This document shows positions 3,020 to 64,000 of a stretch of 64,000 nucleotides of DNA, piece by piece (the stretch's first letter is position 1; every line of letters begins with the position of its first letter). The stretch covers positions 24,428,001 to 24,492,000 of the forward strand of contig OZ038378.1 in assembly GCA_964036045.1 (NCBI GenBank). Direction: 5' to 3'. The stretch is from Eutreptiella sp. 'Long Island Sound 2002' (lineage: Eukaryota; Protista; Euglenida). A program made the position numbers and the translations under genes. The notes below the pieces were generated by a model, which saw only the letters and a list, made by a program, of their open reading frames with translations, had not been told where the DNA came from and did not search any database.

Positions 3020-4166
3020 TCATTTACATTGAGCATTGGAGGCACTTGGCCAAAAGAGCTGAACCCAGACAGAGAAGGGGCCACATGTGGGGCCATTGGA
3101 GGAGGTCTGGCAGAAGCAGGAGAAGCTGTAAAGGTGGGTTGAGGACCATGAACATTCATCGCTACACTTGTTATTGCTGGATATGGTGGTGATGGGTTGC
3201 TTAATGTTGAAGAGGTAGAAGGTGAAGAAGCAGCGGATGTTGTTGGCGGTCTTTGTGATGGGGTTGCCGTCCATGGTCCTAGCATGAATGCCTTCTTCAT
3301 TGGTCCGTTCCATCCATCGCGGGTGCATAGCTTGGAAGACGTTCCTGCGTTTCCGGTAAGCATGGTAAAGTTCCACCCAAAGTTCTCGTTCCTCATCCGT
3401 GAACCTTCCCGGTGTCAGCGTACCACCAGTGAGCGCAACAAATGCTGCTTGATTGTCCACATGTGTTGATCGCTTGAGACACTGCGGAGGCCGGTTGCGC
3501 TTCTGGGAATGGACAGCATTAGGTCGTCGTTGTAGACGATCTGCCATGCTGGCAACGGCAATGGGGGGCGCATTGGATGAGCTGGCGACGTCGACAACGG
3601 GTGAAGCACTTCCCGAACTAGAATCCACCGGTTCAGGAGAAGGAACACGCACGGCTTGATCAACCGATTGTGGGTCACCCTCCAATGGAATAACCTCCGA
3701 AATTGCATCAAACGGATCGACATCGAGTAGTGGGTCATCCTCCAATGGAACAACCTCCGAAATTGAATCAAACGGATCAGCATCGAGTAGCGGGTCAACA
3801 TTCTCAATCAAAACTTCCACATCGTTTCCCGGTCCTTCATGTTCATCAACATAAACATCGACATCTTCAATGGAATCGGCCTCCTGTAACCAACGATTGA
3901 GTTCCTGCATGGTACCTTCTATGTCATCTTCTTCGTTCGTGACGTCAACATCTTCATTGTTCTCCGCATGTTCCAAACCCAAATCAAATTCAATATGTTC
4001 AACAACCTCGTTTGGAGCCACAGCCACGATGCCATTCTCATCTTTGTTGTCATTGTTGCAGGCACAATGTTTCCAGGCTCCAAAATTGGGACATTCAGAT
4101 GGCACTTGAAACCCAGCGGCGGCAGCATGCTCGGGAGTTCGGTAAAGAAGTCCTTGACCAACATTC
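3020..4166 (-). pseudogene. Probable C-terminal part of the same transposase (acidic linker plus helical domain)
   Basis: Overlapping out-of-frame ORF 3020..4267 with an acidic stretch and FTDEERELWVELY...FQAMHPRW...KTANNIRCF, resembling the Myb/HTH-like tails of this transposase type (from memory). Confidence 0.45.
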
Positions 4167-5282
4167 TCACCGTTGGACCAGATGAAACGTGTCTTGATAA
4201 ACATTGCAATTCGGCCCAAATATGGATTGAATCCATCCACGATCTTTGCAGCAGTCGTCGGTGACAAATATTACGACTTCTCCCGCTCTTTGCGCCAAGT
4301 CTTTGAGATAAGGTGTTGCGGTTTCATGCTTCTGGTCACGGCAAAGACACCAAGTCATAACTTGACCCAACTCGTTGAGAGCAATGTAGAGGGCGGAATA
4401 CTGCGGTCTCCACTTCCAACGCATGCCCGTCCCCGTGCGAACACGTTCCCAGTATCCCACGTTCACCACAACTTTGAAGGTGTGATCAGCCGATAACCGG
4501 CAAGCAGGAAGGATGGCCATTTGGCTGCGGTAGAAGCGCTCCACTTTCCAAAACCATTCGAACATCGCTCTTCGTAGGGTGTCATCGGAGGGGACATGCC
4601 GCATACTTTTCAATATTTCGGTATCTGCCGTGAATGAAATTGTGCACGCTGCATTTGCCAGGAACCTTTTCTTGTACTCCTTGAACTGCATTTCGCATCG
4701 TGTGGCATCTTCATCGTAGCGGCGACCAAGTTGGAAACAAAATTCTCGGAATGATTGCCCCGACAGAACCGCATCCTGCAACCAGTTCATGACATCGAAA
4801 CTGATCCCAAATTCGTCGAGGATGAGGTACGGAAAGTACGTAGCCGCGAGCTTGCTGAGTTTGCTTCGATGAGCCACACAAGTCTTCACTACGCATTGCT
4901 TGTTGGGGCAAACGTAGTTGAAGCTGAATAGCAAGTGAGCGGATTGAAGTCCATATAGGCGGAATGTACGGTGGTACCAGCTATCGGTGTTGGTGTCTCT
5001 TTTCAGCTCGCTGTTGCATTGCGTACACCAGCATGATGTTCCCATTTGGCCAATCGGGTCGAAGCAAACAACAGCCGGAAGGCAGAAACTCTCCAAGTTG
5101 CGTCCCCATGTACGTGTCACCACAGGGTACGGAGTATTCTTTCCAAGTGTACTACGCACACGGCGAAGAGCATCAAGACCACTTGGACTGATCTTGTACC
5201 CTTCCTTGGCTCCAGTCTTACCCCCAACGGCCAATACGGAAAGTATACCACAGGTTGCAAATAATAAGATCTTGAGTATCAT
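4167..5282 (-). mobile_element. Truncated DDE transposase, MULE/MuDR-clan-like (LSADHTFK ... VTDDCC ... QDTFH)
   Basis: 371-aa ORF with an N-terminal CxxC..C zinc motif, a first Asp in SADHTFK, then LYIALNELGQV, a second Asp in FVTDDCC and a DxxH motif (DTFH). The ORF stops directly after DxxH, so the catalytic Glu region is missing. Confidence 0.6.
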
Positions 5283-5535
5283 TTTGGCACCTATTATTAT
5301 GAAGTATTGGTTAAATGAAGGTTTAAATTTAATTTGGTTGTGTAAGGTTAACTTAAATTATGTCGTTACAAGTTACATGAAGTTTTACACTTAAATTTTT
5401 GCACATAGCTACAAGCAAAGTCAACAGGTGGTTGACAGTTTTGCTGTAGTTTTGATGGTGGTATTGAGCCTGGCGTAGGTTCGATTCCTGATTCGAGCAT
5501 CAGTGCTGGATCGCTCGCCGCCGATCGCAGCGATC

Positions 5536-6614: not shown

Positions 6615-6730
6615 GTGGCTTGCGGCATTGGAGAATGATGAAAATCGTTGAAATTACTTTTGTGACACACAAATTGCAACACCGAACATTCCCAATTGCA
6701 CCTCAGATTTGTGATTCACGACCCCGATTC

Positions 6731-7130
<400 letters not shown>

Positions 7131-7620
7131 TCAAATGTTGTATCATACTCTAATCACACAACCACCTCCAACACAACAACCAATAGTTCCACATCCACCT
7201 ACTCCAACCACACAACCCCAACAGTTCACTCAACAACAACCCCCATTTCCATCTCTGCCTGGGTCGCAATATTTCAACCCCTGAATCTGGTCATGAAGCG
7301 AAAATGTATGTATAACCATTCCAACACAAGTTGCATGCTACGGATACACTATCCTTTGACCCTTCAGAGAATTTGAGTTCATCAATTTGTCAAGTTGTTC
7401 ATGTCCCTTGCATGCCTTTTGTTGTCTTTGTTTGCCCTTCATTGCAATTGCCCTTAATAAGTGCCTAGGATCCAACTTCAATAGACCCACATGTAGTGAA
7501 GTCAGTGCCTATTATATGAGTGACTTCACTACATGGGGATGAATAACACAATTTTTACATCCATTGGGACATCCCAAATCTGCCCATCCATGAATTTCTA
7601 TTTGTCCAATGACATCCCAC

Positions 7621-39664: not shown

Positions 39665-41610
39665 TCATTCTTCTTCCATGTACTGACCACACACCCGCAG
39701 AAAGACATGCTGCTCTCCGGAAAACTTCTGGCCCGTCAATTTCTCAACGGCCTCTGCGTGTGCCTGGTTCGCAGGTGAAAGGCGGATCTCAGAAGACTTG
39801 CGCCTGTCATGTACAATGACCTTCCAGAACTCATCACATTTCTGTTGGTCGTGGCGCAGGTTACCAGTGTACCCCTGAGGCACCTCAAAACGTTTCTTGT
39901 TGATGTACAAGGCTTCACGACTTTGCGATGTCCCTGGCTGGGTATTCACCTGTGCAGCTGAGCGCAGGGACGTTTTTGGGCCTGTAGCTTCTTTGTCGGA
40001 GTCTGGATACAAAGGGTCCTCTGATGCACTATCAGAACTTGGAATGCTATGAAAAGCAGCCCATGCAGATGCCTCAGTAAGAAACACATCTGCAATGGAA
40101 TGAGAACTGGGTCAGTCTGCCACTTGATCGTGCACTCAGAGCCCTCCACCGCGAGCACCTTACCCCAATGCAAAAAACCCTTGTCCCCTGTACGCAAGTG
40201 GTGAGTGAACACTGCACACACTTTGTCGCCCTTTGAGGCTTTGCGATGCAAATCCTTAGGCACTGACTTGACTGATGGACCGTGCAACGGAGAGGAGGGG
40301 GATGGGCTGGGTTTTGGAACTTGTGCAGGGCCATGCTCCAGGGGAGGGGAAGGGGATGGGCTGGGTTCTGTGACTGGGGCAGAAGCATGCTCCAGGGAAG
40401 GGGAAGGGGGTGGGCTGGGTTCTGAGACTTGGGCAGGGGCATGTTCCAATGCGGAGGGAGTGGATGGGCTGCGTTCTGGGGCTTGGGCAGGGGACGCGTG
40501 GTTCGTTTTGGGTCTCTTTCCACAAATGCGCTGCATTTGTGCTGTCATCGTGGCAAACAAATGCTTCAACGGTGCCCGAACCTTCGCGTAAGGTGGTCGG
40601 ACATATTCCAAAGGGACCAATCCTTGGCACTTTCTGCCCACCACTTTGACTTGTACCCAATGAAATGTTTGGGGGACTCCATGCATTTCCGCAAGCCTCA
40701 GTTGGGTGTTCACGCGGACCGAGGCAACGGCACCTGTTACTCCGGACAACGTTTCATCTACCGTATCAGAACTAGTCATCGCTGCCTCCCTCAAGCATGC
40801 CCGGACCTGCCCGACGAAATCGGCAGCCATCGGTGGCAATACCAATGCTCCCGGATCTGTCCCTATTTCAGTGCGTGCCAAGAGGCATATATAGCCAAGG
40901 GAGTGGTACCCACAGGTCCAATTGTCGCCTACGGGTTGATGCCCGAGTGCTTTGGCTGGCACTTCAATATCATTCACCTTACAAGAGTCCAAGAAACTGG
41001 ACATGTACTCATTGGTGGCTTTGGGATCCCATGCAAACACAATAAAGCCCGCCTGCCGGACCTTACGGCCGTCAAAGGCAACCACAAACCAATGACAGCC
41101 CTGCTACGAACCACGCTCTACGTCATGGGCCTCGGAATTCACCAACATGAAGTGGCGCCGCTGCAACCAATTGGACTTCCTGGCATTGGCCTCCGTCATT
41201 TCTCGGTGCCGCATAATGGCCCGCACAAGGTAGTTCCATGCCAGCGGCTCGTCCACAACGTTGAGGTACGCCCGCTCTGCCAAGAAGGTGATCACATGCT
41301 TATCCTGCAACCACTCGTTGTCATGCGGGTAGGACACGGGCGCGCTTGCAGCCACAACGGATCGTTTTTGTCCTTGCTTTTGGGCACGTTGAGGCCGTCC
41401 TGTGTCATGCAGAGAAAGGGATGGGGCTTGTAGGCTGTTGGCATACCAAGAATTTTTGCCTTTTAGTCTGATGCTTGCCATAGGTCCCGCAGTCCAAATT
41501 TCTGCACCTATCCGCCCTTGGTGGCATACTAGGAAGTTTTGCTTTTTAGTCTGATGCTTGCCATAGGTCCCGGGGTCACGATTTCTGCACCTATCCGGCC
41601 CTGCTGGCAT
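39665..41610 (-). pseudogene. MULE cargo or C-terminal region: Cys/His repeats, Ulp1/C48 cysteine protease, SH3-like and Tudor-like domains
   Basis: WLQDKHV..., GCHWFVVAF, FAWDP and QPVGDNWTCG give the Ulp1 H/D/Q/C catalytic order. WVQVKVVGRKCQGLVPLEYV is SH3-like. GDKVCAVF..HWGKVLAVEGSECTIKW is Tudor-like. One in-frame TAG at 41104-41106 and a frameshift at about 40110. Confidence 0.75.
40280..40490 (-). repeat. 54-bp (18-aa, LEHxPAQVxxPSPxPSP) in-frame tandem repeat
   Basis: 3-4 copies visible in ORF 39946..41085. Confidence 0.85.
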
Positions 41611-41648
41611 TCAAAGAATGATTCTTCGTCTGATGCTTGCCATACATC

Positions 41649-43697
41649 CTAGGGTCTCGAATACCGGCACAAACAACACAAACCTGGTGTGGGTCGCATC
41701 TCCGTCAATGGGACTGTGGCCTCTTCCTCTGCGGGCCTGGCCTTGTGTGGCGTCCGTAGGTTGCGTGGTGGATGTTGCTGGTATCCCATTCGGCGGGCTT
41801 CACGGATCCGTACGATGTCCCACTCTCCGTGTTGACCTTGTTCTTGTGCCCAAAAGACATGCCAACATGAAGCATACTGCCAAAACTCCGGGCAAAAGCA
41901 ATGCATTGCGTTGAACCGCCTGTACTGCTGCAACAATTTGCAAGCAGCCGCATCCAAGGGGCCTGCATCAAGCGCCGCCTGCAAAGCGGTCGTCTCCTCC
42001 GCAGTAATGGTCTGCGGGACTCCATCCACTGACGCCTTTGCGAACCAGTAACCACCGGCAAACTGCATGTGTTCAGTTTTCGCCAAGCGCATGCGTTTCA
42101 GCTGCAGAGCGTTGGGGTACAAGCCAGCCACAGGCGTGGTGCGGTCTTTCGACCAATTGTGGACCATGCGCTTGGCCCATTTGAAGAAAGGGATGAGGCG
42201 CCGCCGTTCATGCCGAGTCCAAATGCGCTTCACGGAAGAATTTATGCCCTCTTGATGATTGTTTGTGGTTGGGTACCCGGCGAGCAATGTGGCAATGCAC
42301 CATGATGTGCCCAAATACTCCTTCCGGAAAGCCTCGGTGAACTTTTCGGGAACGCCTTGGGAAACCCACTCTGTAATAGCCTCTCCCTTCTTGTCGTGGT
42401 GCACTTGTGGGGACGGCAAATTGGCCAATTCTCGTAACGTTGCCATGACGGCAGGGTTAAAAGATCCCAAAAGGGTTGCCTTATCGCGAACAATCTTCGC
42501 AACATGAAAATAACAGTCGGCCACCCTCATCCCGGGGAACTCTGCGGCGAGCACATCCCGAAAGGCACCAGCATGATCCGCCATCCCCTTTGTTGGGCAC
42601 CAAGGAAACCCATCCTTTTGCACCTCCTCGTGCACTGCCTTCAAGAACGGTGCGGTGACTGCTTTCCGCTCTGATGTTGCTATGCAAACAGCGATGGGCA
42701 ACAAATGGTGTGCGACGTCACACGTACCCAGGACTTGCATGGTGAAGCCCTCTACCGTGATGGAGAACTGCCCGTCGATGGACAAGAAATCCTCCCCACG
42801 GCCCCTGCGGGCGTTTCGAATCAGGTTCGGCGTCGAGAAGCAAGTCAAGAAGGTGGATCCGTCATCTGCAATGGATTTCTTGAAGCAATACGGCGAATCG
42901 TCATCAATTCGCTCCTCTTCCAGCTCGTTGATCCATTTCTCAAGCTCTGCCTTGGTACTAGGGGGCGGGAGGGCCCGCCGTGCATTCCAAATGGCGATCC
43001 ACTTTGCCGACATTTTGCCTACCACAGGGTCACCAGGGAATGCTTCCCGCATCAAAACCAGAGCCCGTTGTGGACAATTGCCTTGCAAAAGATCCTTGAG
43101 CTTAAGGGTCATGGGCAACGGCAAATGGAGAGACGTACCCTCCAAGTATGACGAATGTGTCCCATGCTCACAAAGGCCGATTTGTTTGATGGTCCACCGC
43201 CCACCCACCTGGTCATGTCGCACGTACCGCTTGGTGTCACAACCCTCACAAGAACATGCGTACATGTTTTGCCGACCAGGAATGGACACGAAACGCCCAT
43301 CCACTGTGCGAGCGGCATCCCTGGCTACCTTCTGAGTTGTGAAGACTTGTCCATGCAAAGGTGCAAACTCTACATCTGGGTCTTCAACGGTGGCCTCGGT
43401 GGAATTGTTGTTTGCCGAACCCGCAGTGGAACCGTTGTCTAGCGAACCGGAAGGGGCTTGACCAGGGCCTTGACCAGTGGCAGGGCTGGGGGGGACAGTG
43501 GGGGGACGCGGTGGGTCTTCAGCAGCTACACTCAGCGTCCGTCCAGCAGGCCGGGGACCTTTCAGGATGATGTGGAAACATGTTGTGCAAATAGTTGGGC
43601 ACCGTGGGTACATTGCAACAGCAGCACGCTGGAGAGCGTCGCCCAGTTCGGCCACTGACACAGTTGCATCTGCCCCACAAACACACTTGTCAGGCAT
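41649..43697 (-). CDS. MULE transposase with WRKY/FLYWCH-like Zn finger and SWIM domain
   Basis: 682-aa open ORF: CSCEGC..EHGTH; FLSIDGQF (D1); GMADHAGA (D2); CYFH; TTNNHQEGINS (E); HCFCPEFWQYASCWH (SWIM). Confidence 0.92.
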   Translation of the reverse strand: MPDKCVCGADATVSVAELGDALQRAAVAMYPRCPTICTTCFHIILKGPRPAGRTLSVAAEDPPRPPTVPPSPATGQGPGQAPSGSLDNGSTAGSANNNSTEATVEDPDVEFAPLHGQVFTTQKVARDAARTVDGRFVSIPGRQNMYACSCEGCDTKRYVRHDQVGGRWTIKQIGLCEHGTHSSYLEGTSLHLPLPMTLKLKDLLQGNCPQRALVLMREAFPGDPVVGKMSAKWIAIWNARRALPPPSTKAELEKWINELEEERIDDDSPYCFKKSIADDGSTFLTCFSTPNLIRNARRGRGEDFLSIDGQFSITVEGFTMQVLGTCDVAHHLLPIAVCIATSERKAVTAPFLKAVHEEVQKDGFPWCPTKGMADHAGAFRDVLAAEFPGMRVADCYFHVAKIVRDKATLLGSFNPAVMATLRELANLPSPQVHHDKKGEAITEWVSQGVPEKFTEAFRKEYLGTSWCIATLLAGYPTTNNHQEGINSSVKRIWTRHERRRLIPFFKWAKRMVHNWSKDRTTPVAGLYPNALQLKRMRLAKTEHMQFAGGYWFAKASVDGVPQTITAEETTALQAALDAGPLDAAACKLLQQYRRFNAMHCFCPEFWQYASCWHVFWAQEQGQHGEWDIVRIREARRMGYQQHPPRNLRTPHKARPAEEEATVPLTEMRPTPGLCCLCRYSRP

Positions 43698-44120
43698 GGG
43701 TTGTGGACACTGGAGTGAAAGGGGGGCAATCAGTGCAGCAAATTGTCAAGCATGGGTGTGAAAGGCAAGAAAGAAAGGGGGGCAGGGGGGTAGGAGTGAG
43801 ACATTTGTTCCAGCTACCAGCATGTAGTCCCTTCCTCGATCTTGAGACGTCGGTTCCGCTGAGACTTGAAATTGTGCCCCTGGGCTCTGGCCAACATGGT
43901 TGAGTGCCCTACTTCAGAAAAATCCAGGCATTACCTATGATCCGTTCAAATGACCTCTCTGCATAGGTCCCCCAGCGAAGGGACACCCCTGTTCTCTGAG
44001 CAGATGACATTGTGCACATGGGCTCTGGCAAAGGTGGCTGAGTACCCTACTTTACAACATTTAGACATTACCTGTGATCCTCTCCGATGGACTCTCTGCA
44101 TAGGCCCCCCAGGTCCAAAG

Positions 44121-50659: not shown

Positions 50660-53600
50660 CAGGGGGATATGCTTTATCACCCCGTAGGTTTGAGGTTGGA
50701 GATTTCAGGTTTGAGGTTTCAGGCACTAGATGCCTTTCGGCCCCGGTGGGCCACTTGGGCGGGCCAGGTGATGTTTTCCCCACTGGGGCCTAGTTGGGGG
50801 CCCTTCATGACGCACCTCCTGCTTGGTGGCGGCTTCCGCGGGGTTTACGGGGCTCGGAGCCCTGGCCCTCCCCGGCTTCCCCCTTTCGCCACTCCCCGGT
50901 CAGTGTGTTACAAGGCAACTAGGTTGCAGGCGCTTACCCACTACTTCGTCCCCCTAATGCATGGTTGCCCGGCCTGCTGGCGCCGCCGGGCCCGTGCTAC
51001 TGGCTTGATGCCAGTGGGACCCCCATAGGTTGGCGCATAGGCTGCCTAGCGGCGGGGCTGATGCGTCATGCTTTGCACCACTACTGCCTTGGCGGGTGCA
51101 GTGCCCTGTTGGTGTGTGTGCGGCACTCGCGGCACGTCAGGGGGGCGGGTTTGGTGCCGGGTCTCGTTTTGTCTCCCCCCCCTCGCGTCCCCCGCGGTGC
51201 TTGTAGCCCGTTGCCCCTTCTGGGTGTCCCTTGTCCTCGCTTGCACTGGTACGCCATTCCAGGTGGTCCGTTCGTTCCGCGAGCTCGGTCCGATTGCCTT
51301 TTTGGTGCGTGCCCCCTGCCCGTTGTGTGGTTCTTCACTCGCGCTCCCGTGGTGTCCGTGTCGCCCGGCCTCCTCTCCCTTTTTGCGCGCCCACTTCGCG
51401 CGGTCCCCTCGCAGGGCGCTGGTAGGGCTGTTTTTGGTGGTCCATGCCCCTCCGCGTTTCCTTATAGGGTCCCGTGCTCCTCCTGCCTAGCGTTGGGCGG
51501 GAGGGGGGGTGGCCCGGTCCCTGTGTCTCCCTGCTTGGCTTCCATCGCGCGCCCCCACGGGGCTGGGTGTGTGTGGCCAGGGCAGCCCGTTGTCCGGATG
51601 GGCTGGGCGGGGCAGGGGGGCGGATGGGGGCCCCGGCTGTGGTTGGCTCACCTGCCGGGGGTCTCTGAGCTAGGCTGCCGTGTGGTGCCTGGTGGGACGT
51701 GGAAACTTCTTGTTGCCGCCCAGGTGAGGGGTGTCGGAGGCGGTGGCGGCCGGTCGCGGTGAAGCTCCGGCGTCCGGCGTGGCGCGGCATCGCGTAGCCC
51801 GCGGGGGGCTGGCTCAGCTGTCCCTCCCCCCTCCCTGCACGGGCACTAAAGCGGTTTCCCACTGCGTCACTTTGGCTGGTGAGGGTGTTGCCTCCATACT
51901 GTTCCCGTTTGTTTCCGTGTGCTTCTGGGCGCCGCGTGGGCGCCGCCCAAGGAGGGGCTCCCGTGGCCTGTTTACTGCCTTCGCTCACCTCGCCGCCTCG
52001 GTGGGCGACTGGCACGGCTGTGTAGGGGTAGCTGTTGGGCCCCGGTTGGCGTGGAGCCGCGGGGGCGGGGGGGGGGTGGGGATTGCTGGGGGTCCCCGTT
52101 CGCCGCTGCGTCCTCCGATCACGTCCCTAGCTTGCTTTCCTCCCGTGCGGGGCGCAGGAAGCGCCGCCTGCGCGCGCCCATCTCTGGGGCTTCTGAGCTT
52201 TCACCTGGCGCGTGGAGGTTGCCCCCAAGTCGGCGGGACCCCGGGACCATCGCTGGTCTGCGAGCGTGCGCGGTGCTGCATGCGGAGGTCACGGGGAGCA
52301 GAGACGGTGGAGTGGCGGTCAAGGGGGATATGGCGCAGGGTTTAGGCTGGCCCAAGCATTCAATTGCCAGTTTTCCGGTCTCGCCGGTCACCTGGCGGTG
52401 AAAGACGGTGTGCCTGAGTCGTTGGTGGTTTGGGGCCTCGTGTGACGGCTGCCCAGCCAACTGGCGGGCAGGGTTTGAGTTCAGGGGGACAGCGGGTCAG
52501 CACTGGAACCGAGGCCTCTGCTCCTCGCGGCAGGCGTGCGGCGGGGGCTGCCCTGACGCCGGGTCAGTCCACCGTGTACACCACGCGGCTCTGCAGGTCA
52601 GCCCCGCCTGTCGGCAAACCCCCCCCTGCCCGCACGTCGCCCCCCCCCCCCCCCCCTGGCGGGGGGCCCCGTCCTCCCCCCCTCCGGCTCCTCGGAGCTC
52701 ACCGCGGCCAGGTGCGGCGACGGGGCGCTCGGCCACGACGGGGCGCTCCACCCAAAGGCAAAGCGCGTGGGCGTCCTGGTGCAGGATTGCCCCCGGGAAG
52801 GGCGGCAAGCAGCTCAGGGCGAGGTGGACCGTCACATTGCCGGCGGCGTCGGACGCCACAGCCAGGTTTCCCGTTTTGCCGGTCTGCGTCGTCCAGCACA
52901 TACCATGTGGGCCCTGCCTCTGGCGGACTCAGAGGGGCTGGCGGGCTGGCCTTTGCCTAGGCAGTGCAGCCTGCGTGCCCTGTGGCGTGGTGCAATGGCG
53001 CGCAGTGACGTGCAGGTCCGAAGGCCCACTCCCAGGGGGGGCAGTGACCCCCCCGGTCTGGCAGGGGGGGTCTCGCGGCCCATCGCGCTGCGGCGGGGGT
53101 CACGGGCTGTTGTTCCCCTTGTCTCCCGCCGCAGACGCAGGTCTGGCTGCGCCGGGGTGGCGTGGTGTGCTCGGCCTCTCAGGGGGGGGGGGGCAGTGAT
53201 CTCTCTGCGCCAGGCCGTTCCGTCTTGGCGAGGGCCAATGGCGGCGGTGCGCGTCACTGCCTCCGCGGACTTCAGGCCTGGGGCAGCGGCAATTGGCCAG
53301 GCAGATGTCAGGGGGCGGTGGCCCGGGCTACCCCCCCTTTGTCCCCGGGTGACATCTGTGCTGGCCGGGGTCAGGGGTGCCAGGCGGGTCACAGAGGTAG
53401 GTGGGCCCCCAGGTCCGCCAGTGCCGTGGCGTCGCGTATCGCTGGCGCGTGGGTCCTCACATAGTTTTCCGTGCCATGCCCGCTGCACGTGTCCCGCGTG
53501 AGCTCCTTGTCATGCTGTCATGGTCTGGTGGTCGTCCCGGGGGGGGGGGGGGGGGGGGGGGGGGGCGATCCCCCCGGGCTGCAGGGGGGGGGGTCTTGCG

Positions 53601-53930
53601 GTGCGCCTCGTTGTGGTACGGTGGTGCAGAGGTGCGGCGGCCCGCCGCGGGGGGGCGGTGGTCCTCCCGGTATGAGAAAAAAAGGGGGGGTGTTGAGGCG
53701 TGCCCCGCTTCCGCGGGGGCTACTGGCAGTGGCCGTTGTCCCCCTGGCCGCACACCGCAGACGCAAAGGGGGGCGTGCCGGCCGTTGCAGGGGGATGCAG
53801 GGATGCGGGGATGCGTCCCTCCCTCCTTTGGCGGCCGGGAGCCATGGCCTGGGACGGTGGGTACTGGTCAAGCGGCCCAAGTGGGAGTGTACAAAATCAA
53901 CAATGCTTTTATGTGATATTCGCCTGTGCC
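50660..53930. mobile_element. Unclassified very GC-rich decayed repeat, about 3.3 kb
   Basis: Abrupt high-GC block with G/C homopolymers and many overlapping low-complexity ORFs; no recognisable domain. Confidence 0.35.
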
Positions 53931-54030
53931 ATAATATGCCCCAAAACCATACCAAAACATTGAGGGAGTGTACAACTGAATACTCAGTATGTCATAGTGA
54001 CCCTTAGCGGGAATCAGCACGAATGGCGCG

Positions 54031-54131: not shown

Positions 54132-56483
54132 AGAATAGAATCAAGCATGCATGGATGCGTTAGTTACAGACTCAGATAGGCGTGAATGCGTAACAGTGCA
54201 AAGCGGCACACAGAAGACAGTTGCATGCGACACAGCACATACGAAAGCTGAGATAAAGAGAACTGCGAGTTTTGATGATTGCTGTGTAGAATATTCATGC
54301 TTGCATCTAATGCAAACGCCTGCATCATTTGACTGTGTAGGCTGTTCGCTCCTAACATGTTTGGGAGTCGTCGAGAACTCAGATGATCAGCCGTTCAAGA
54401 AGTATCAATGGTGCTTGCTGTATGTGCAGGGATGCAGGAGTAAGGGAGCAATTCGAGGATTTTGCATTTTGAGTTCTGAAAAACTTTCTGGAGTATCAAA
54501 AAAGCAAGCAAGGTGAAAATCTGCAGTAGCGCTGAAGAAAAATAGACAAGACGTAAATGTTAATAGTCCATGAATGAGCAACAATTTCTCAAAACATTGG
54601 GTTTCATATGGAGCAATGGTATTAATCGTCATTCAAGTTTGGTTGAGACATTGGGGGAAATTTTATCCACGGAACTTGATCGCTTTCAATATGGTTGAAA
54701 GGCACTTAAAGCTTAATTTTGATTCAAAATGAGGATTTAGCTTTTGTATTATATGCCATTGCAGCCATGAGTTGTTGCTAGATATTCCATTGTTTCTTCT
54801 TTCAACACTATTTGTAACATAGCTCAACATGGGTGCTGGCCTTTGCGTCATCTTTTTTTTTGGCTTATTCTCATTGAGATTGAGCTATTCAGTAATTTGC
54901 ACTTTTCCCCAACATATGGTGGTTTTACAGAAAATGAATAGGATTTTCAGATTCAGCATTCCATTCCGCATCTATAGAGTGGTCATATGACTACTTCAAA
55001 TTTCTGACCAATTTTGGCCCGTGAGCGCACCGCCTACTCCATGGGCGAATCCTACTCAGTTCTGAGGTCATCAGGGCAGTTCCTACTGAGTTCTGAAGAC
55101 ATGAATTAATTTTTTCCTGAGCTACAGAAAATTCTTGGAAGACATTTGAAGTGATTGTCCATAATTTTTTATTAAGGAGAATCCATTTTTCTTGCGTCTG
55201 TTTTACTATCTTCACAGGAGGCCTGATTTCTGCAGTATTCCATTTTTGCCATGATCTGAAGTCACTATTCACTGTTGCAGCCATTTCCAGAGTGCAGACT
55301 GAAGGCGCTTATGCAAAATCCTGAGCGATTCTGAAGCATACATGCATGCATACACGCAAGTGCAAGGCCAAACATCACCCATTGTTTGTCTGTTCATTGT
55401 GCAGCCCCATCAAGTTCTTCATTGGTTTTATTGATCCCATTTCTGCTCGTCTTGAAATCTTGGTCTGGTTTTATTTTCCATCGAAATCTTTGTGTACCTG
55501 AAATGGAACAGGAACAAACCCCAAAGCAAGTTCATCCAGAAGTTACCGAGAATATTCAAACAGAGGAACAAGATGCAAAGCGGGAATCTAGCAGTGGTAG
55601 CAGAGGTATGGATGCGACCGTGCACGATATCGATTCCACACGTCAAAGCGTTGACCTCGCGAGTTCTAGCAACGTCCACAACCAACAAGCGTCGCTGGCG
55701 ACTTTTGTTCACGGCGCACTCGAAGACGATGGGGCGAATCAAGAAAGGCAACCATTATTTCAATCATATGAAAGTTATCGGCGCATGGGAAAACAAGAAC
55801 TGGATTCTATTGGTGATCCTTATGCTTTGTTACTGGCTGGTTTGGAAGAATGCGAGCATGTTTTACGCGTCGAAGAAGAGAGCATGCAGAATGTCTTTTA
55901 CCTACGCTGGCTTTTAATAAGACAGCAGCTTCAATTCAAGAGCGCGACGCGCGCAGACGTTTGACCAGTTCGTTTCCAGATACGAGTTTACCGAGTTTCC
56001 CGTCAGGATCTACTACGACACCTGTTCCTTTCATTCCACTGACAATTATACTGGAACCGATGTTGTCACCGAAGGGCCACGGTTCAGGAGACGATCACGG
56101 AGTACTTGTTTGGGCGTCGAGTTCAGAAGTTGGTCACAATATCTCCGCAGGGTCTTATGACTTACCTGAGACAAAATTTGCAAAGGACCTTAAGGATTAA
56201 ATTGGCGATTTTACAGAAGAGGAGCACGGGAAGGTGAGCGACTGGCTGCAAGAATATTTATTCAGGGATCTCAAGGAGAAAATGAAGCACGAAGCTATCG
56301 AAGTACGAGAGAAGCGTACGCGCAAGACGCTTAAGGGAAAATCCAAAGTCGAGTTGATAAGACTCTCTCTGACAGCTCCGAGGATGAAATCCTGGAGACG
56401 GATGACCCACTTCTTTCGAAGTTGCCCCAGCGTATTGATGGATTAACGAGCAGATCTCCAGGACGTCCGAGGACATTCAGCGT

Positions 56484-57863
56484 ATGCCAACCTCCAGTCG
56501 TTCACCACCTGCTACAAAAAGTCCCTTTGTCACGCGAGAGTCATCGGCTTTTGCAACACTTACTGAAGTTTGTGGCGGTTTGAATAAACATGAATGGACG
56601 GATGACAGTGGGGAGGATACGACTCACGCTCTGAAAATGGAAATTCCACCGTTCGATGGGCGCAACGTTAAGAAGTATGCGGAACAATTTGGTAGATACT
56701 TGGTGCTTACTTGCAAAGCCGAAGCCAAGGATCGGGTGAAAGCTAATCTCATCGTTCAAGGCATCAAAGATCCCGATCTTCAAGAACGAGTCTCCAAATT
56801 GCTCAAAAAGGCCACCACCTTTGAGGATTTTCTGAACAAACTCCAAGACCTCTATCCTATTCTGGAGACGGATCTATCAATTCTTGGTGAGATTTCGAAG
56901 GTGTCCCATTTACCTTATGATCCAAAACCAGAGCAAGTGGTCAAATTATTGGAAACACTGGAAAGGTTGTTTGACAAGTTGAACCCAGGGGTTATGACTG
57001 AGGAGCGCCAACTTATGGAGCTTTCTGCGAAGATCAATGGTAAATTATTCTTTGAGTGGACCAAGGATGATAACCGTTTCACACGGATGCAGTCTTATGG
57101 TTTACTGAAGGATCTCATGAAGGAGCGCGCACAGCTTTGTGTCGGTTTTAAAAATCTTGCCGCTTCGCGTGGTTCTGCTTTCGGGCGCACTGCTTCGAAT
57201 CGATACCAAGAAAAGCAGAGAGATAAGGAAAAGGACACCTCTTTTTCTAGTGGACCACCGTCTGAAAGTTCTCCCAACAAGCCGGACATTGATGAGCTCC
57301 TCTCCCGATGCCACGCGATGATCGCAGAGGCAAGAGTCTCTGAGAAAGAAGGCAAGGGCGACAAAGGAGGAAAAGGTTCTGGCAAAGGAAAAGGTCGAGG
57401 AAAAGGAAAACGCTTAGGAGGCAGAGGAGACAAAGGACAGCTGGACCCCAATGCATTGATCGCCGCATTTAAGGCGCGCATTCAGTGTAAGCATTGCCGT
57501 AAGACGAGCCACTACAGCGCTCACTGCTTTGAGATCCAAAGGCAACAGAAAGAGGAAAGACTCAAGGCCTTCCTGATCCAGTCCGGTCTCAGTGAGGAAG
57601 CAGCCCAAAAGGCGGTGGAAGACGCCAAGAAGACATGGAAGGACCAGAAGCAAAAGGGACCAAAAGATGGCCCGAGAAATAAAAATACCTCCGGCCCTGC
57701 CGCAGCAGGTGCTGGTTCTGGAGCCCCCTCAGCACAGACCAAACCGATGCAGGAGGACACTGAGAGCCAAGCCAAGAATAGGAAGAGAGATCTTGCATTT
57801 TCAGAAGTTGAGAAAATTGTGGACCTGCTTCGAGCAACTGTCAAGGACGGTCTCACGTTGTGA
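56484..57863 (+). CDS. gag: Gag (open part) with CCHC zinc knuckle
   Basis: 459-aa ORF with IPPFDG and CX2CX4HX4C. Upstream fragments 55503-56450 probably form the N-terminus. Confidence 0.85.
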   Translation: MPTSSRSPPATKSPFVTRESSAFATLTEVCGGLNKHEWTDDSGEDTTHALKMEIPPFDGRNVKKYAEQFGRYLVLTCKAEAKDRVKANLIVQGIKDPDLQERVSKLLKKATTFEDFLNKLQDLYPILETDLSILGEISKVSHLPYDPKPEQVVKLLETLERLFDKLNPGVMTEERQLMELSAKINGKLFFEWTKDDNRFTRMQSYGLLKDLMKERAQLCVGFKNLAASRGSAFGRTASNRYQEKQRDKEKDTSFSSGPPSESSPNKPDIDELLSRCHAMIAEARVSEKEGKGDKGGKGSGKGKGRGKGKRLGGRGDKGQLDPNALIAAFKARIQCKHCRKTSHYSAHCFEIQRQQKEERLKAFLIQSGLSEEAAQKAVEDAKKTWKDQKQKGPKDGPRNKNTSGPAAAGAGSGAPSAQTKPMQEDTESQAKNRKRDLAFSEVEKIVDLLRATVKDGLTL

Positions 57864-58289
57864 CTACACGTGGTTGTGGAGGAGGAGATGTGTGACGCTG
57901 TCTTGGATACTGGTGCAACCGATTCCATTGTGGCTTCATCATTGGTGTCAGATCCGAATCGCAGGGGTTATTGTGCCATCAAGGTGTACGATGGGCAATG
58001 CACGTACATTGAAGCAGAGAAATCCGTGGATGTGTGCATGGGCAATTTTACTCTTCCTCATGTTTGTATCGTTCTGCAGATTTCGGCTTTTCAGGTATGT
58101 CTTGGCATGAATTTCATCCGCCAAAACGCAAAAACGATTCTGGGTTTGATTTTTACTCCATCAAGACTCATTGTCAAAAATCCAGAGACTGATGAACTAT
58201 CCTTGGTATCGCTATCTGAAAAGTCCTCTCAGAATGAAGGACAAAACGGACTGCCACCTGCTCAAGCATCATTGAGAATCGCCCGGAGA

Positions 58290-58710
58290 GAAGCCTACAG
58301 TTTGTTACCTTCACTGAGGGAGCAAGTCCTTATCGACCTTGGTGTTTTGAGACCCACCGTGGACTTGTACGCCAACGCCAAAAATCATAGCGAACCGTTG
58401 CATAGCACTCCCCTCAATTCATGTTATGCCTACAACTGCAACGACTTTCAGTTCTGCTGTGCTAACCCCCCGTGGTGGCACCTCGAGAAGATGGTTACCA
58501 AGGCCGTGCTCGACAGAGCTCAAGTCATGGTTATTTGTGCTGATTGGTGCCAAACCGGGGAAGCTGCTGCATGGCGACCATTTTTGGACCGCATGACTAA
58601 GGTCCTATGCCTGATGTACCCCTCTATCTCCCAGATTGGGTGACCAGCCCATTACCAGCCCCACGCTGGGGAAGCATTGCATCTCTCATCGTTGGCAATG
58701 ATTGGGATAT
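58290..58710 (+). pseudogene. Dam-like N6-adenine DNA methyltransferase domain within pol
   Basis: PTVDLYA..N, NSCYAYN, ANPPW (58461-58475), LEKMVTK, VMVICADW, WRPFL and LPAPRW match in order the DIRS-type MTase consensus P.IDLFA..N..DAF...W..ANPPF..I..VL.K..LI.P.W..W..L..LP.P.W. Frameshift at about 58605. Confidence 0.85.
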
Positions 58711-61700
58711 TTCGTTGGATGAACTGAATCCCAAAGTGGTCAAGTTCCTCCATCGAGTAAACCGTGGTTTAACTCGGTCTGATCTGATGAAACGATACGG
58801 GCACGATACACCTGCAGCAACGACGAAGGACGAGTCTGAAGTCCAAGAAATTCACCCTCCAACGGAATCAGATGAAGAACAGGACACTGGCGCTCAAGAT
58901 GCTGAAGTTGACAAGGTGGACATTCAGTGGGAAGAGGTCAGTTAGGATCCTGCAGACGTGCAATGAGATGAAGTCAGTGAAGACGGCGATCTGGCGGATC
59001 TCAATCTCGCTCAGCCCCTGAAGTACAACCCATTCCCAAGCATCCACGAAGATTATTCGCACCGAATCAAGGATTTACTGAGTGAAGTGGATTTCGAGGA
59101 TTCAGTTATCGGAGGTGTACAAGATTTTACCATGTCACGTCTGGTCCTACATGCTATGCAAGAGTATGGCGTGTCCATGCAAGTGGATGAAGACAAAGCA
59201 AGTATTGCCAAACCACGTGGATGGCCGGTCTCGAAGGAAGACTTACCCTCTTTGAAGGAGGACATTGGGCTCCGAATCTTCCAGATATCGGAGGAACAAC
59301 AAAGGAGAGAGCTCAAGGACAGATGGAAGAGCCATTACAACTAGTTCACAAGTAGGAGCGTTGACGGAGACGAAACAGATTGGTTTTATCAGTTTCACGA
59401 TGACGAGCGCTTTATCGTGGATGGCAAGGATGTTTACTTGGATGTCACAGCTCTAAGTAGCGAATGATTCTCCGTGTCAAGGGACGAGACGGGAAATCCA
59501 ATTTGGCAGCCGCAGATGATTTTGAGGAGAAGATCAAAGATTTGCCAAAGTTCAGGAAGTCCTACGCCGGAGGAAAGTTGCCTTTGGACCTCTGATGGCT
59601 CATGGTTCATGTGAAAAGGTGGTCACCATGCACTTGGAATTGTTTGATGAACATAAAAGTACCACAGTACGTTCAAAGCCTTTTCCAGCTAGCAAGGCCG
59701 ACAGTGAGAAAATCATGCGTCAGATCACTGAATGCGTTGCGGCCGACCTAGCTGAGAAATATGAGCAAGCGGAGTATCCAAAGCACTGCTCTCCCTGTTT
59801 CTTGGTTGACAAACCAGGGAGCAACGCCAAAAGGTTGGTTGTCCACTATGGGAAAGCTGAATAAGCTCACCAAGAAACATTCAGGAAGTCTACCCAGTTT
59901 GGAACAAGCGCTGGAAAGAGCCGCTCATTGCCGTTACAAATGCAAATTTGATAAGCGCAGTGGTTTCTGGCAAGTGGAGTTAACGAAAGGAGCGCAGGAT
60001 GTGTCAGCATTTATTGCACCTAATGGTCACGTGTTCAAATGGAAAGTCATGCCGTTTGGCTTGACGAACGCTCCAGCAACTTTCCAGGAGCTCATGAACC
60101 AGGTGGTGGCCCGGATGAAGCTGAAACGGACGCTGCAAGCAGTGCTGAAAAAGGGAGCAGTCATCCCGGTCTATACAGACGATGTCTTATTGGGGACCGA
60201 TGACGCTGATGATCACTTACGCTTGGTGGAACAATTTTTACGCACTTGTGAGGAATGCAATACCCGATTCAAGTTGGAAAAATGCGAGTTTATGCAGGAG
60301 GAAATTCAGTATTTAGGTTTCCAAGTCGGCTGGAGATGGTGGAGACCTGTGAAGGATCAAGTGACCCCTATTTTGAAGGCGACCATCAGGGATGACAAGA
60401 ACCATGGCGTTAAGGACATCAGGGCTTTTCTGTGATCCTGTAATTTTTACAGGAGACACATCCCCACTTTCACGTACAGTAGCCATCTCCTCACGGACTT
60501 GACCAAGAAAACTGTACCTTGGAAGTGGACTCCTGAGCATGAAGCTCAGTTTCAGGAGATCAAGGAAAAACTGAGTTCTTTGAGGTTGTTGGGCACACCT
60601 GCACCTGACGGCGAGTTCGTGGTCATCACGGATGCGTCTCTTGTGGGAGGCGGTGGTACCCTCCTGCAATGGCAGGGAACTCCAGGAGCAGCTGCAAAAA
60701 GAATAGCAGATGAATTGCGGACAGTTGGAGTTAATCGTGACGGGTCTCTCAAGCACAACTATGATTCGCAGGAATAGCATCTCGTACCCATTGGACACTG
60801 GGACTGGAAATGGCCCTCGAACAGAGCTACCTACAGCACGTATGAGCGTGAATTGCTCTCAGGAATTTTGCTTATTTCTGGACAAAGCCGACTGTTTGGC
60901 AGCAATTCGGTATCGTGGTTATGTGATCAGGAGTCCACGGAGACATTTTCCAAGGGAGCCCCTCCTGAAAACCGGAAGCTCAGGCGTTGGTGGACGTTTC
61001 TCGCGCAGCTGAAGCTCAATATCTACAGGGTACTGGGTCTGAAAAATGAGTTATGTTATTGGCTATCATGTGAGAATTTCGACGAGAAAATTTCTGCAAG
61101 CTCTGAGTCTCGCTCTTGAGAGACTTTTCAGATAATGGCCGTTCAGTGGGACCTCACCATGGGCAAAGCTTAACTACTCAACTCTCTACGGAAGTCTGAC
61201 TATTTGGAGGAGTATGAAGATATTTTGACAGCCCTTGGCGAAGCATCTTATGCACTGGTTGACAAGGAGCTTTCGTCGTTATCTTCAAGTGGGACATTGC
61301 GGAAGGAAGTACAAATGTGCATACCCAAGAAGGCGTTGGGCGCAGCGTTGCAGTGGACTAACGATGTTGTCGGTCATCCTGGACCGGATTCCTGGCTCTG
61401 AGCCTTCGAGAAGATGTTCCACACTCACATAGCTGACACAGAGTTGACACAGAAGATCGAGGACATGCACAGGACATGCAAGGAGTGCGTCACGAGCAAG
61501 CGGAACCGACCCAGTGATCGAGGCTTACTTGGTGTCTTGCCAGTTCCACACATGGTCAATGCACTGCTGTATATGGACTTCATTCACAGACCCAAGTGTC
61601 ATAACTACGACTATGCTTTGATGATTTTGGACACTCTGAGTGCTTAATGTCAAGTGGCACCTTGCAAGAAGACTATTGATGGAGAAGGCGTGCTGTAATT

Positions 61701-64000
61701 CATCAAACACCATTGGATTCCTTTCTATGGTGCACCTGTTCGCATTCACAGTGACAAGGATCTTCGCTTCAAGGGAGACTATGGCTGGTACCGCAATGTA
61801 TTTGCCGCATTGGGTGTTGAAGTTTCTTTTTCACAACCTTATTGCCCTCAATCAAACGGACTATGCGAAAGAATGAATCATGAGCACCAAGAAGAGCTCC
61901 GTATCCTGAGGCAGAGTATCAAGACCAGCAATTGGGTCCGGTTGAACGACTACGTGGTCGTATGTATGAACCACAAGCAGAGAGGAAAATCTGGACATTC
62001 ACGAGGAGACATTTTCCATGAGACGCCTACACTACGTTTGGACCTACCCTTTCCACATGAAGGCAATGTTCAAGTACAAGACTGGCTCAAAGAACAAAAC
62101 AAAATTGCACAAGTAGTGCAAGCCCATTTGCGGAAAGGAAGAACGAGTCGGTTTGAGCGCAGCCATAGACGGAGGAAACCTGCAGTTTTCAACGTGGGCG
62201 ACTACGTACCCGTGAGCAGAAAGAGGTTCAAGCAATTGGAGGTACCTAAGGGTGCCGCGAAGGATGTCATGTGGTATGGTCCTTACCTTGGTGTTGGAGT
62301 CAGCAGTGCCGGCATTACGGTGCCTTGTAGCCCTACTTTGGGCGGAGAAGTACCCGTTGCCTTTGAGTTCGTGAAGCGCTTCCCATTTGAGCTGGTGGAT
62401 GACTATGATGTAGACACGATCGAAGAAGGAGACGCAGACATGCTGAATGACGATGAGCGAGCAGCGCCTGCCGATGAACAGGACATCGTGGGGAATGAGC
62501 AGGATATACCATGCTACAATAAGATGGAGATGGAGAGAATTGCAGCTTATCACGTGGAACAGATCTTGACAGGGCAATATCGGCAAGGCTCGCGCTTTTT
62601 GACGAAGTGGGAAGGCTATGGCACAAGCGAGAGCACTTGGGAACCAGTGCGTGCATTCGTGCATGATGATGGAAAGCTCAAACATGTTTTCCTGGATTAC
62701 TGTTTGGCACACGCACCTCGCTCTGACACAGCCCTACGGCAAGCTTGGCGGATCAGCAGCAACTTGAAGAAGAAGTCCATCACGGAGGAACCAAACGAAG
62801 ACACTGCCACGGACAACAGAGAACAAGGAGAGGTCAGTTGTAAGAAGATTTCACAGCAGCGCGGAGGCAAACGGCGACGTACAAAAGGACCTACAGTTGG
62901 TGGTATGGCAGAAGACTGGTTACCGTGAGTAAGTTCCAAGAGACTGAGGAGGAGAGAGTACCTTGAAGCTTTTTTCATGCCCTTATGCTTCCGCTGCCTC
63001 TCCAAGTTGAAAACCTGCAGACCTTCACTTCATTCTCCAACAACCATTGAAGTTTGTAAAATACTCAGAAAAGCAAAGTTTAAGGCATAGAAAGTCTTCC
63101 ACACCTTATTTGGTCTTTATTGGTCCACGTGGATATTTCGGAGGGACCGCCGGGCTTTCTGCGCGCTGAGTCGCCCGTCGCCAGAAAGGTCAGCAGAACA
63201 ATCTGGGGGCCAGAAAGAAAGGAGTTTGAAGATGTTTCAAGGTGAATTATTGAACAGTCTTTGAAGGCGGATATGACTGTTATAACAACACGTCCTGAAG
63301 TTACGACAAGTTCTGGAGGGAGTTGAGTTGGAGGGACCCAAGTATCAAGGAACCTGGGGCTTCTGGGGTTCCGAAAATCTTTAGGTTAATTCATGGTTGG
63401 CGAGTACTTTGAATATTACTTGGTTGTGGTTTTACTTCGTAGCACGTATGGTCAACTTGAAGCCAAGTTTTAGTAACTGCAAGTTGAGTCTTGGGGTTTT
63501 GGAGGGAGTTATGCCCAGGGCACCAACCTGAACTGAACCAGTGGTCTACACGTTGAGGCGAAAACGTAAAGTAACGCGTTAGAAGTCTGGACGCGCCGTT
63601 GTACACGTGCAGCGACAAGCTGAGTCCTCACGCCCTGGCATTTGTGTTATGACACGCTGATTCATGTGGCTGGATTGAGGCATCGTGGTACATTTATGAT
63701 GTGGGATCTTGAGCTCAAGTTCATATGCTGGAGTTTCAAGGCTGCGAGTGCAGGCCCCCAGCGACACATATGACCACCTGACAGCTGAGGTACTGGCCTC
63801 ATATCTAGGGAGCCTACTTCACTGTTTACATGGCTCAATTACTGTGTTCATCTGCCCAAATTGATTGGATTTGGTGACATTGATTGGGTCAAGCGCCTGG
63901 ATTAGAAGTGGATTTCCGACTACTTCAACTAGGAACTTCGTTCACACCTATGAGAGCGTACGAGGACGACACTTGACTATCCAGAGACCGTTTGAAGGAC

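Follow-up and report, generated by a model that had tools for sequence, protein, structure and literature searches.

DIRS1-like elements carry a Dam-like methyltransferase domain in Pol, arranged in the order RT-RH-MT; they encode a tyrosine recombinase, and their terminal repeats are inverted (PMC3266345), and the gypsy element KnitGypsy-Dnmt3 likewise encodes a DNA methyltransferase in its Pol (PMC5890265). Closer to the locus studied here are the DAM-LTRs of a May 2026 preprint, which reports Dam in non-DIRS LTR elements, distinguishes five DAM-LTR lineages, describes a Euglena group, and counts chromodomain types as 30.9% of DAM-TEs (10.64898/2026.05.21.726589). A sequence-only reading of our locus had known of no described gypsy lineage with a 6mA methyltransferase in the linker between protease and RT, a claim that fails in light of this preprint, which was also the only item recovered from the literature on Euglena LTR retrotransposons with a chromodomain and on Euglena 6mA/AMT1.

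Here we describe a decayed, high-copy Ty3/gypsy LTR element that occupies positions 54558-64000 of a 64-kb stretch of DNA (hereafter the window; all coordinates are window positions). Its domains are ordered Gag, stop, protease, Dam-like domain, acidic spacer, RT, RNase H, DDE integrase and chromodomain, and we are nearly certain that it is a DAM-LTR.

Structure and Surroundings of the Element

The features of the element are collected in Table 1. Pfam and NCBIfam matches confirmed the order of protease, RT, RNase H and DDE integrase and, with RVT_1, RNase H-like, rve_3 and Chromo matches following one another along the element, bore out the gypsy arrangement with a DDE integrase and a chromodomain that had been proposed from the letters. 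The copy in the window is broken, with at least seven in-frame stops and four frame changes within 57864-61119, and the ORF that begins with the protease runs from 57864 to 58643. The RT motif reads YTDD at 60172-60183 and YIDD in sister copies. For the RT of one sister protein (P0071), the best PDB matches were the caulimovirus enzymatic polyprotein (8r0s, E 1e-32) and Ty3 (4ol8 and 7q5b, E 2e-26 and 2e-25), with retroviral RTs at E 4e-17 or worse; by this ranking of PDB similarity, which is not a tree, the sister RT is nearer to the Ty3 and caulimovirus enzymes than to the retroviral ones. In a sister copy, the acidic spacer measures about 290 aa; its D+E content is 23% (P0071), and family copies retain it. 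The chromodomain is located at the integrase's C-terminal end, as in chromoviruses, and could be aligned with the Oxpecker, CDYL2 and HP1 chromodomains; going by its predicted cage residues and the published definition of group I as having a Y-W-Y cage (PMC3605345), it is of group I type. No tyrosine recombinase was matched in the element ORFs scanned, no C5-cytosine DNMT in the element ORFs, the spacer-bearing sister proteins or the 3′ ORFs, and no Pfam family by the four longer ORFs tested in the 3′ non-coding part.

Table 1. Features of the element, with their coordinates in the window and the basis of each assignment.
Feature	Position	Strand	Basis or remark
5′ LTR, about 272 bp, TG...CA ends	54558..54829	+	Contig joints; right end placed by CA, then TGG
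Primer-binding-site-like TGG stretch	54830..54841	+	Sequence alone
Gag, CCHC-like knuckle 57486-57527	55503..57860	+	Probable start 55503; 5′ third frame-broken in window copy
In-frame TGA then CTA between Gag and protease	57861..57866	+	Likely readthrough signal
Retroviral-type aspartic protease, LDTGA 57903-57917	57864..58130	+	Pfam gag-asp_proteas E 0.0026, below cut-off
Dam-like (PF05869) N6-adenine methyltransferase domain (predicted)	58287..58690	+	Split by 7-base deletion near 58602
Acidic spacer	58700..59600	+	No Pfam match; stops and frame changes in window copy
Reverse transcriptase	59600..60420	+	Pfam RVT_1 E 2e-28
RNase H	60520..61010	+	Pfam RT_RNaseH_2 E 2e-11; RT_RNaseH E 0.009
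DDE integrase with zinc-finger remnant and GPY motif	61360..62290	+	rve_3 E 1e-4 (below cut-off); IS481/IS3-like DDE matches; motif positions
Chromodomain, Y-W-Y aromatic cage residues	62548..62660	+	Pfam Chromo E 1.6e-6, above cut-off
3′ non-coding part of element	62929..64000	+	Repeat contigs in 3 runs; 3′ LTR starts past window edge

The ends of the element were placed with repeat contigs from three DNA-type runs, which span about 54500 to the window end. In contigs from three runs, position 64000 was joined to 54558 or 54567 (176 letters lying between at the 54567 joint), so a second copy of the stretch that starts with TG at 54558 should lie just past the window end as a direct terminal repeat. 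These joints support direct LTRs with TG...CA ends, the 3′ LTR of the window copy lying beyond the window and the right end of the 5′ LTR being a predicted one. As regards target-site duplication, PBS and PPT, the TGG stretch was observed after the LTR, and the 3′ flank falls outside the window. No tRNA or Rfam match was obtained across the 64 kb.

No host gene was recognized around the element, as 0 of the 140 window ORFs scanned matched Pfam at E 0.001. In one record among the related proteins (P0195), a Gag-derived fragment continues without a frame change into tandem chlorophyll a/b-binding units, and a family fragment (P0273) lies on a contig of identical length. For Euglena, light-harvesting polyproteins whose linkers are short have been described (PMC13076659), and on this one record the host is likely a euglenophyte. 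Elsewhere on the minus strand of the window, a 698-aa ORF within 39949-43745 showed a weak MULE transposase match (E 6e-4), and a 385-aa ORF at 39949-41103 had no Pfam match and displayed an H-W...D...Q...CG pattern, which we take to resemble that of Ulp1-type peptidases; this region is possibly a Mutator-like element with a protease. Two adjacent long ORFs at 3023-5357, also on the minus strand (416 and 396 aa, without Pfam match), perhaps represent a further mobile element or a viral insertion. The window further contains a long trinucleotide repeat at about 6700-7370, reading as poly-threonine, and, shortly upstream of the element, a block at 51000-54000 whose GC content is 68-71% and which includes runs of poly-G and poly-C.

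The Dam-Like Domain in the Window and in Sister Copies

The earlier observation that DLYA (58362-58373) and NPPW (58464-58475) lie in frame with the aspartic protease held up: both fall within one ORF, and a loose D-x-x-A ... [NDS]PP[WYF] pattern occurred once across the six frames of the window, while of 100 shuffles 1 contained it. Because the Pfam Dam match begins at DLYA, a SAM-binding role may be supposed for this motif, which lies in a region where the structure model is unreliable. The conserved W/P tail claimed in the same reading is present as PRWG at 58661-58672, but in the window copy it stands in another frame, after the 7-base deletion, which truncates the domain by cutting off its last third. 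Both pieces of the domain were matched by the family profile (E 2e-52 and 6e-25). Taken alone, the window's own domain gave no Pfam or NCBIfam match and no meaningful PDB sequence match, and the Dam assignment therefore rests on sister copies.

A search with the window domain returned 76 proteins, one of them that of the window itself and the other 75 encoded on ENA contigs 0.2-5 Mb in length. In the profile search that had been proposed as a check, the window domain missed Pfam Dam but 54 of the 75 sister proteins matched it at E 0.05 or better, two of them above the curated cut-off and nine at E 1e-5 or better, the threshold value of the preprint; most of these matches stay under the cut-off, and they span only about 53 of the profile's 169 positions. 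The phage family phrog_111 was matched by all eight sister proteins tested and TIGR01712, weakly, by three of seven. DLYA was kept in 61 of the 73 proteins covering the site and NPPW in 51 of 72, with the catalytic motif [DNSH]PP[YFW] given in PMC4738411 fitting 57 of those 72. Protease and Dam-like domain shared one ORF in 24 of the 75 proteins, Dam-like domain and spacer did so in 23, and in one (P0018) a single ORF spanned protease, Dam-like domain and RT. An internally deleted copy was also present (P0029), in which the Gag core is fused in frame to the methyltransferase and the protease is skipped. The Dam-bearing family was found in several sequencing runs, including an estuary metagenome. 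Scans for related loci in metagenome contigs and viral contigs yielded nothing confirmed, and no phage genome was matched by tblastn.

Within the young family, agreement was 0.92 for the Dam-like domain vs. 0.91 for other regions and 0.87 for the linker; the copies are decaying and branch in the shape of a star, so that this conservation does not by itself point to selection. A profile search extended the comparison to more distant relatives (11 of 15 tested matched Pfam Dam), and a tree of 13 chosen rows, from which the truncated window protein was excluded, gave four families, of which one consists of just one protein. Between families, identity was 50-69% in the Dam-like domain, 44-70% in the protease half and 27-43% in the intervening linker. 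VDLY and WANPPWS were common to one representative of each of the four families, and all 15 rows of the four-family alignment matched Pfam Dam. The higher identity of the domain than of the linker implies, as far as these alignments go, long-term constraint on the Dam-like domain between families. These data support a Dam-like domain that is a family trait rather than a stray DIRS fragment, and the placement of such a domain between protease and RT is supported as a feature of a chromodomain gypsy family.

A Conserved Stop Between Gag and Protease

The Gag region at 55797-57860 is tiled by two sister proteins (P0094 and P0099), and 113 relatives were found, with no Pfam match for Gag. Three further proteins (P0199-P0201) make up a distant Gag family, with 27-30% identity across 40% of the query.

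Among the 32 sister proteins that reach the TGA, 25 stop there, including one at 47% identity (P0153); six carry L, R or S in place of the stop, each a single base away from TGA, and continue into the protease without a change of frame, and one is frameshifted at the junction. No alternative letter reached 10% at any of the six bases of TGA CTA in four runs, two of which come from one study, possibly the source of the window, while the third contributes one contig and the fourth barely covers the site. On these counts, the TGA at 57861 is a family-wide stop and not a product of decay. In fission-yeast gypsy elements, TGA then CT has been described as a readthrough context (bioRxiv 2022.12.06.519325), and readthrough at UGA-CUA between Gag and protease is likely here as well. 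The RNA downstream of the UGA showed no stable structure (z +1.18), and none of the titles found in the readthrough literature concerned Dam-bearing elements.

Predicted Fold and Substrate

The structure of the domain was modeled from 15 rows (pLDDT 61.7, with residues 30-63, the DLYA region, under 50); a model from eight near-identical rows (pLDDT 34.8) was left unused. The best viral fold matches were DNA N6-adenine methyltransferases of phages and giant viruses (E 4e-4 to 2e-3, TM about 0.45), four viral matches being at E 0.001 or better. In the PDB, where no match reached that value, the fold search was headed by PCIF1/CAPAM, an RNA cap enzyme (E 1.7e-3), followed by KsgA, tRNA methyltransferases and E. 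coli Dam. Atlas look-alikes were mostly eukaryotic clusters (0.93-0.95), with PCIF1-type clusters lower in both Atlas searches (0.82). An amino-methyltransferase fold is well supported, but this support does not extend to the substrate of the predicted enzyme.

Possible Role of the Methyltransferase

Starting from what was observed (the domain order, the family-wide presence of the domain, the conservation of NPPW and of the stop between Gag and Pol, and the broken state of this copy), we infer the following course of events for active ancestors of the element. Occasional readthrough of the UGA would yield a minority Gag-Pol product, from which the protease would free the methyltransferase within the particle. 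The enzyme could then mark adenines of the RNA:DNA hybrid or cDNA, after which integration would be directed to methyl-lysine chromatin by the chromodomain of group I type; in a host where 6mA accompanies active genes, the marks might keep new copies transcribed. That active ancestors used the domain to methylate adenines in their own replication intermediate has, in our estimate, about an even chance of being correct. The preprint proposes the same self-methylation model and reports that, in E. gracilis and two ichthyosporeans, DAM-LTRs bear more 6mA than LTRs of other kinds; it also reports that DAM-LTRs showed no raised expression in E. gracilis, that eukaryotic DAMs were alignable to only part of prokaryotic DAM, and that they made no 6mA in dam-minus E. 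coli (10.64898/2026.05.21.726589).

The last of these results would fit a Dam-like domain that was kept as a non-catalytic or very weak module binding element RNA, SAM or a host factor. The methyltransferase domains of DIRS1 have been held to be likely inactive binders (PMC4738411), the domain described here is a minimal core, and its conservation could stem from a binding role. However, four families about 50% apart all retain NPPW and VDLY, whereas in a pseudo-enzyme the catalytic N and the aromatic residue would usually drift, and we consider such a non-catalytic or very weak module somewhat unlikely.

Also unlikely, and slightly more so, is that the domain was an active adenine methyltransferase, dosed by the UGA and released by the protease, with packaged RNA or the RNA:DNA hybrid in the particle as its substrate. 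If true, this would explain why such domains failed on E. coli chromosomal DNA, and the retroelement would be writing its own epigenetic mark ahead of integration.

The PCIF1/CAPAM and KsgA fold matches and the PCIF1-type Atlas clusters raise the further question of a PCIF1-like RNA adenine methyltransferase that acted on the element's transcript or cap instead of on DNA, and the DIRS domain has been placed in the PCIF1 clade (PMC4738411). Sequence profiles and viral fold matches nevertheless favor phage DNA methyltransferases, PCIF1 Pfam was matched by 0 of the 15 rows, and the PDB, which gave no sequence match, may simply hold no close phage Dam structure, making an RNA enzyme of this kind quite improbable. 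We give still less credence to a methyltransferase that went with the integrase and acted in trans on DNA of the host, be it at the target site or in other places, rather than on the element's own cDNA: although the same Pol encodes the integrase and a group I chromodomain, the Dam-like domain lies far from the integrase, behind the protease and ahead of the long acidic spacer, and cleavage would probably separate the two.

A nested DIRS fragment in an ordinary gypsy copy or an assembly artefact, either of which the preprint raises for some E. gracilis elements (10.64898/2026.05.21.726589), is hardly credible here, given that the same in-frame junction recurs in 24 of 75 proteins and in four families (which rules out a one-off DIRS insert), that repeat coverage is unbroken across the Dam-like domain in three runs, and that the scanned ORFs lack a tyrosine recombinase match.

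Comparison With Described Elements

Self-methylation of the replication intermediate, the reading we prefer, concerns an architecture that can be set against several described ones. In contrast to DIRS1-like elements, the window element has the domain ahead of RT and carries a protease, a DDE integrase and direct repeats. The enzyme of KnitGypsy-Dnmt3 is a C5-cytosine DNMT3 (PMC5890265), unrelated to the Dam-like domain of the window element. The fission-yeast elements Tj1, Tosmo and Tcry likewise have an in-frame TGA then CT between Gag and Pol, but the source makes no mention of a methyltransferase in the parts consulted, unlike the window element, and the likeness noted is that of the junction sequence (bioRxiv 10.1101/2022.12.06.519325). 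EpiLTRs, described from Euglena gracilis and Cymbomonas, combine a Dam-like domain with a chromodomain, as the window element does, and differ in having an extra C5-cytosine DNMT (10.64898/2026.05.21.726589), none of which was found in the window element.

With the DAM-LTRs, the window element shares the PF05869 domain in Pol, the NPP-aromatic motif and the chromodomain (10.64898/2026.05.21.726589), and its probable euglenophyte host is a further point of agreement. NPP followed by an aromatic residue is present in the window as NPPW, and PF05869 within an LTR polyprotein is matched by sister proteins, the window copy itself giving no match. The main text on DAM-LTRs mentions no protease, stop codon or readthrough, and the architectures in its Fig. 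2b may include the layout found here. The Dam-bearing gypsy architecture is thus already known, and the window family belongs to a described kind. Judging from the sister copies, the family adds two things: the catalytic motif is intact in all four families, and the UGA-CUA junction is conserved. With the full motif kept in four families, unbroken natural copies should be good candidates for an enzyme test, and the junction is a likely recoding site that can be assayed for readthrough.
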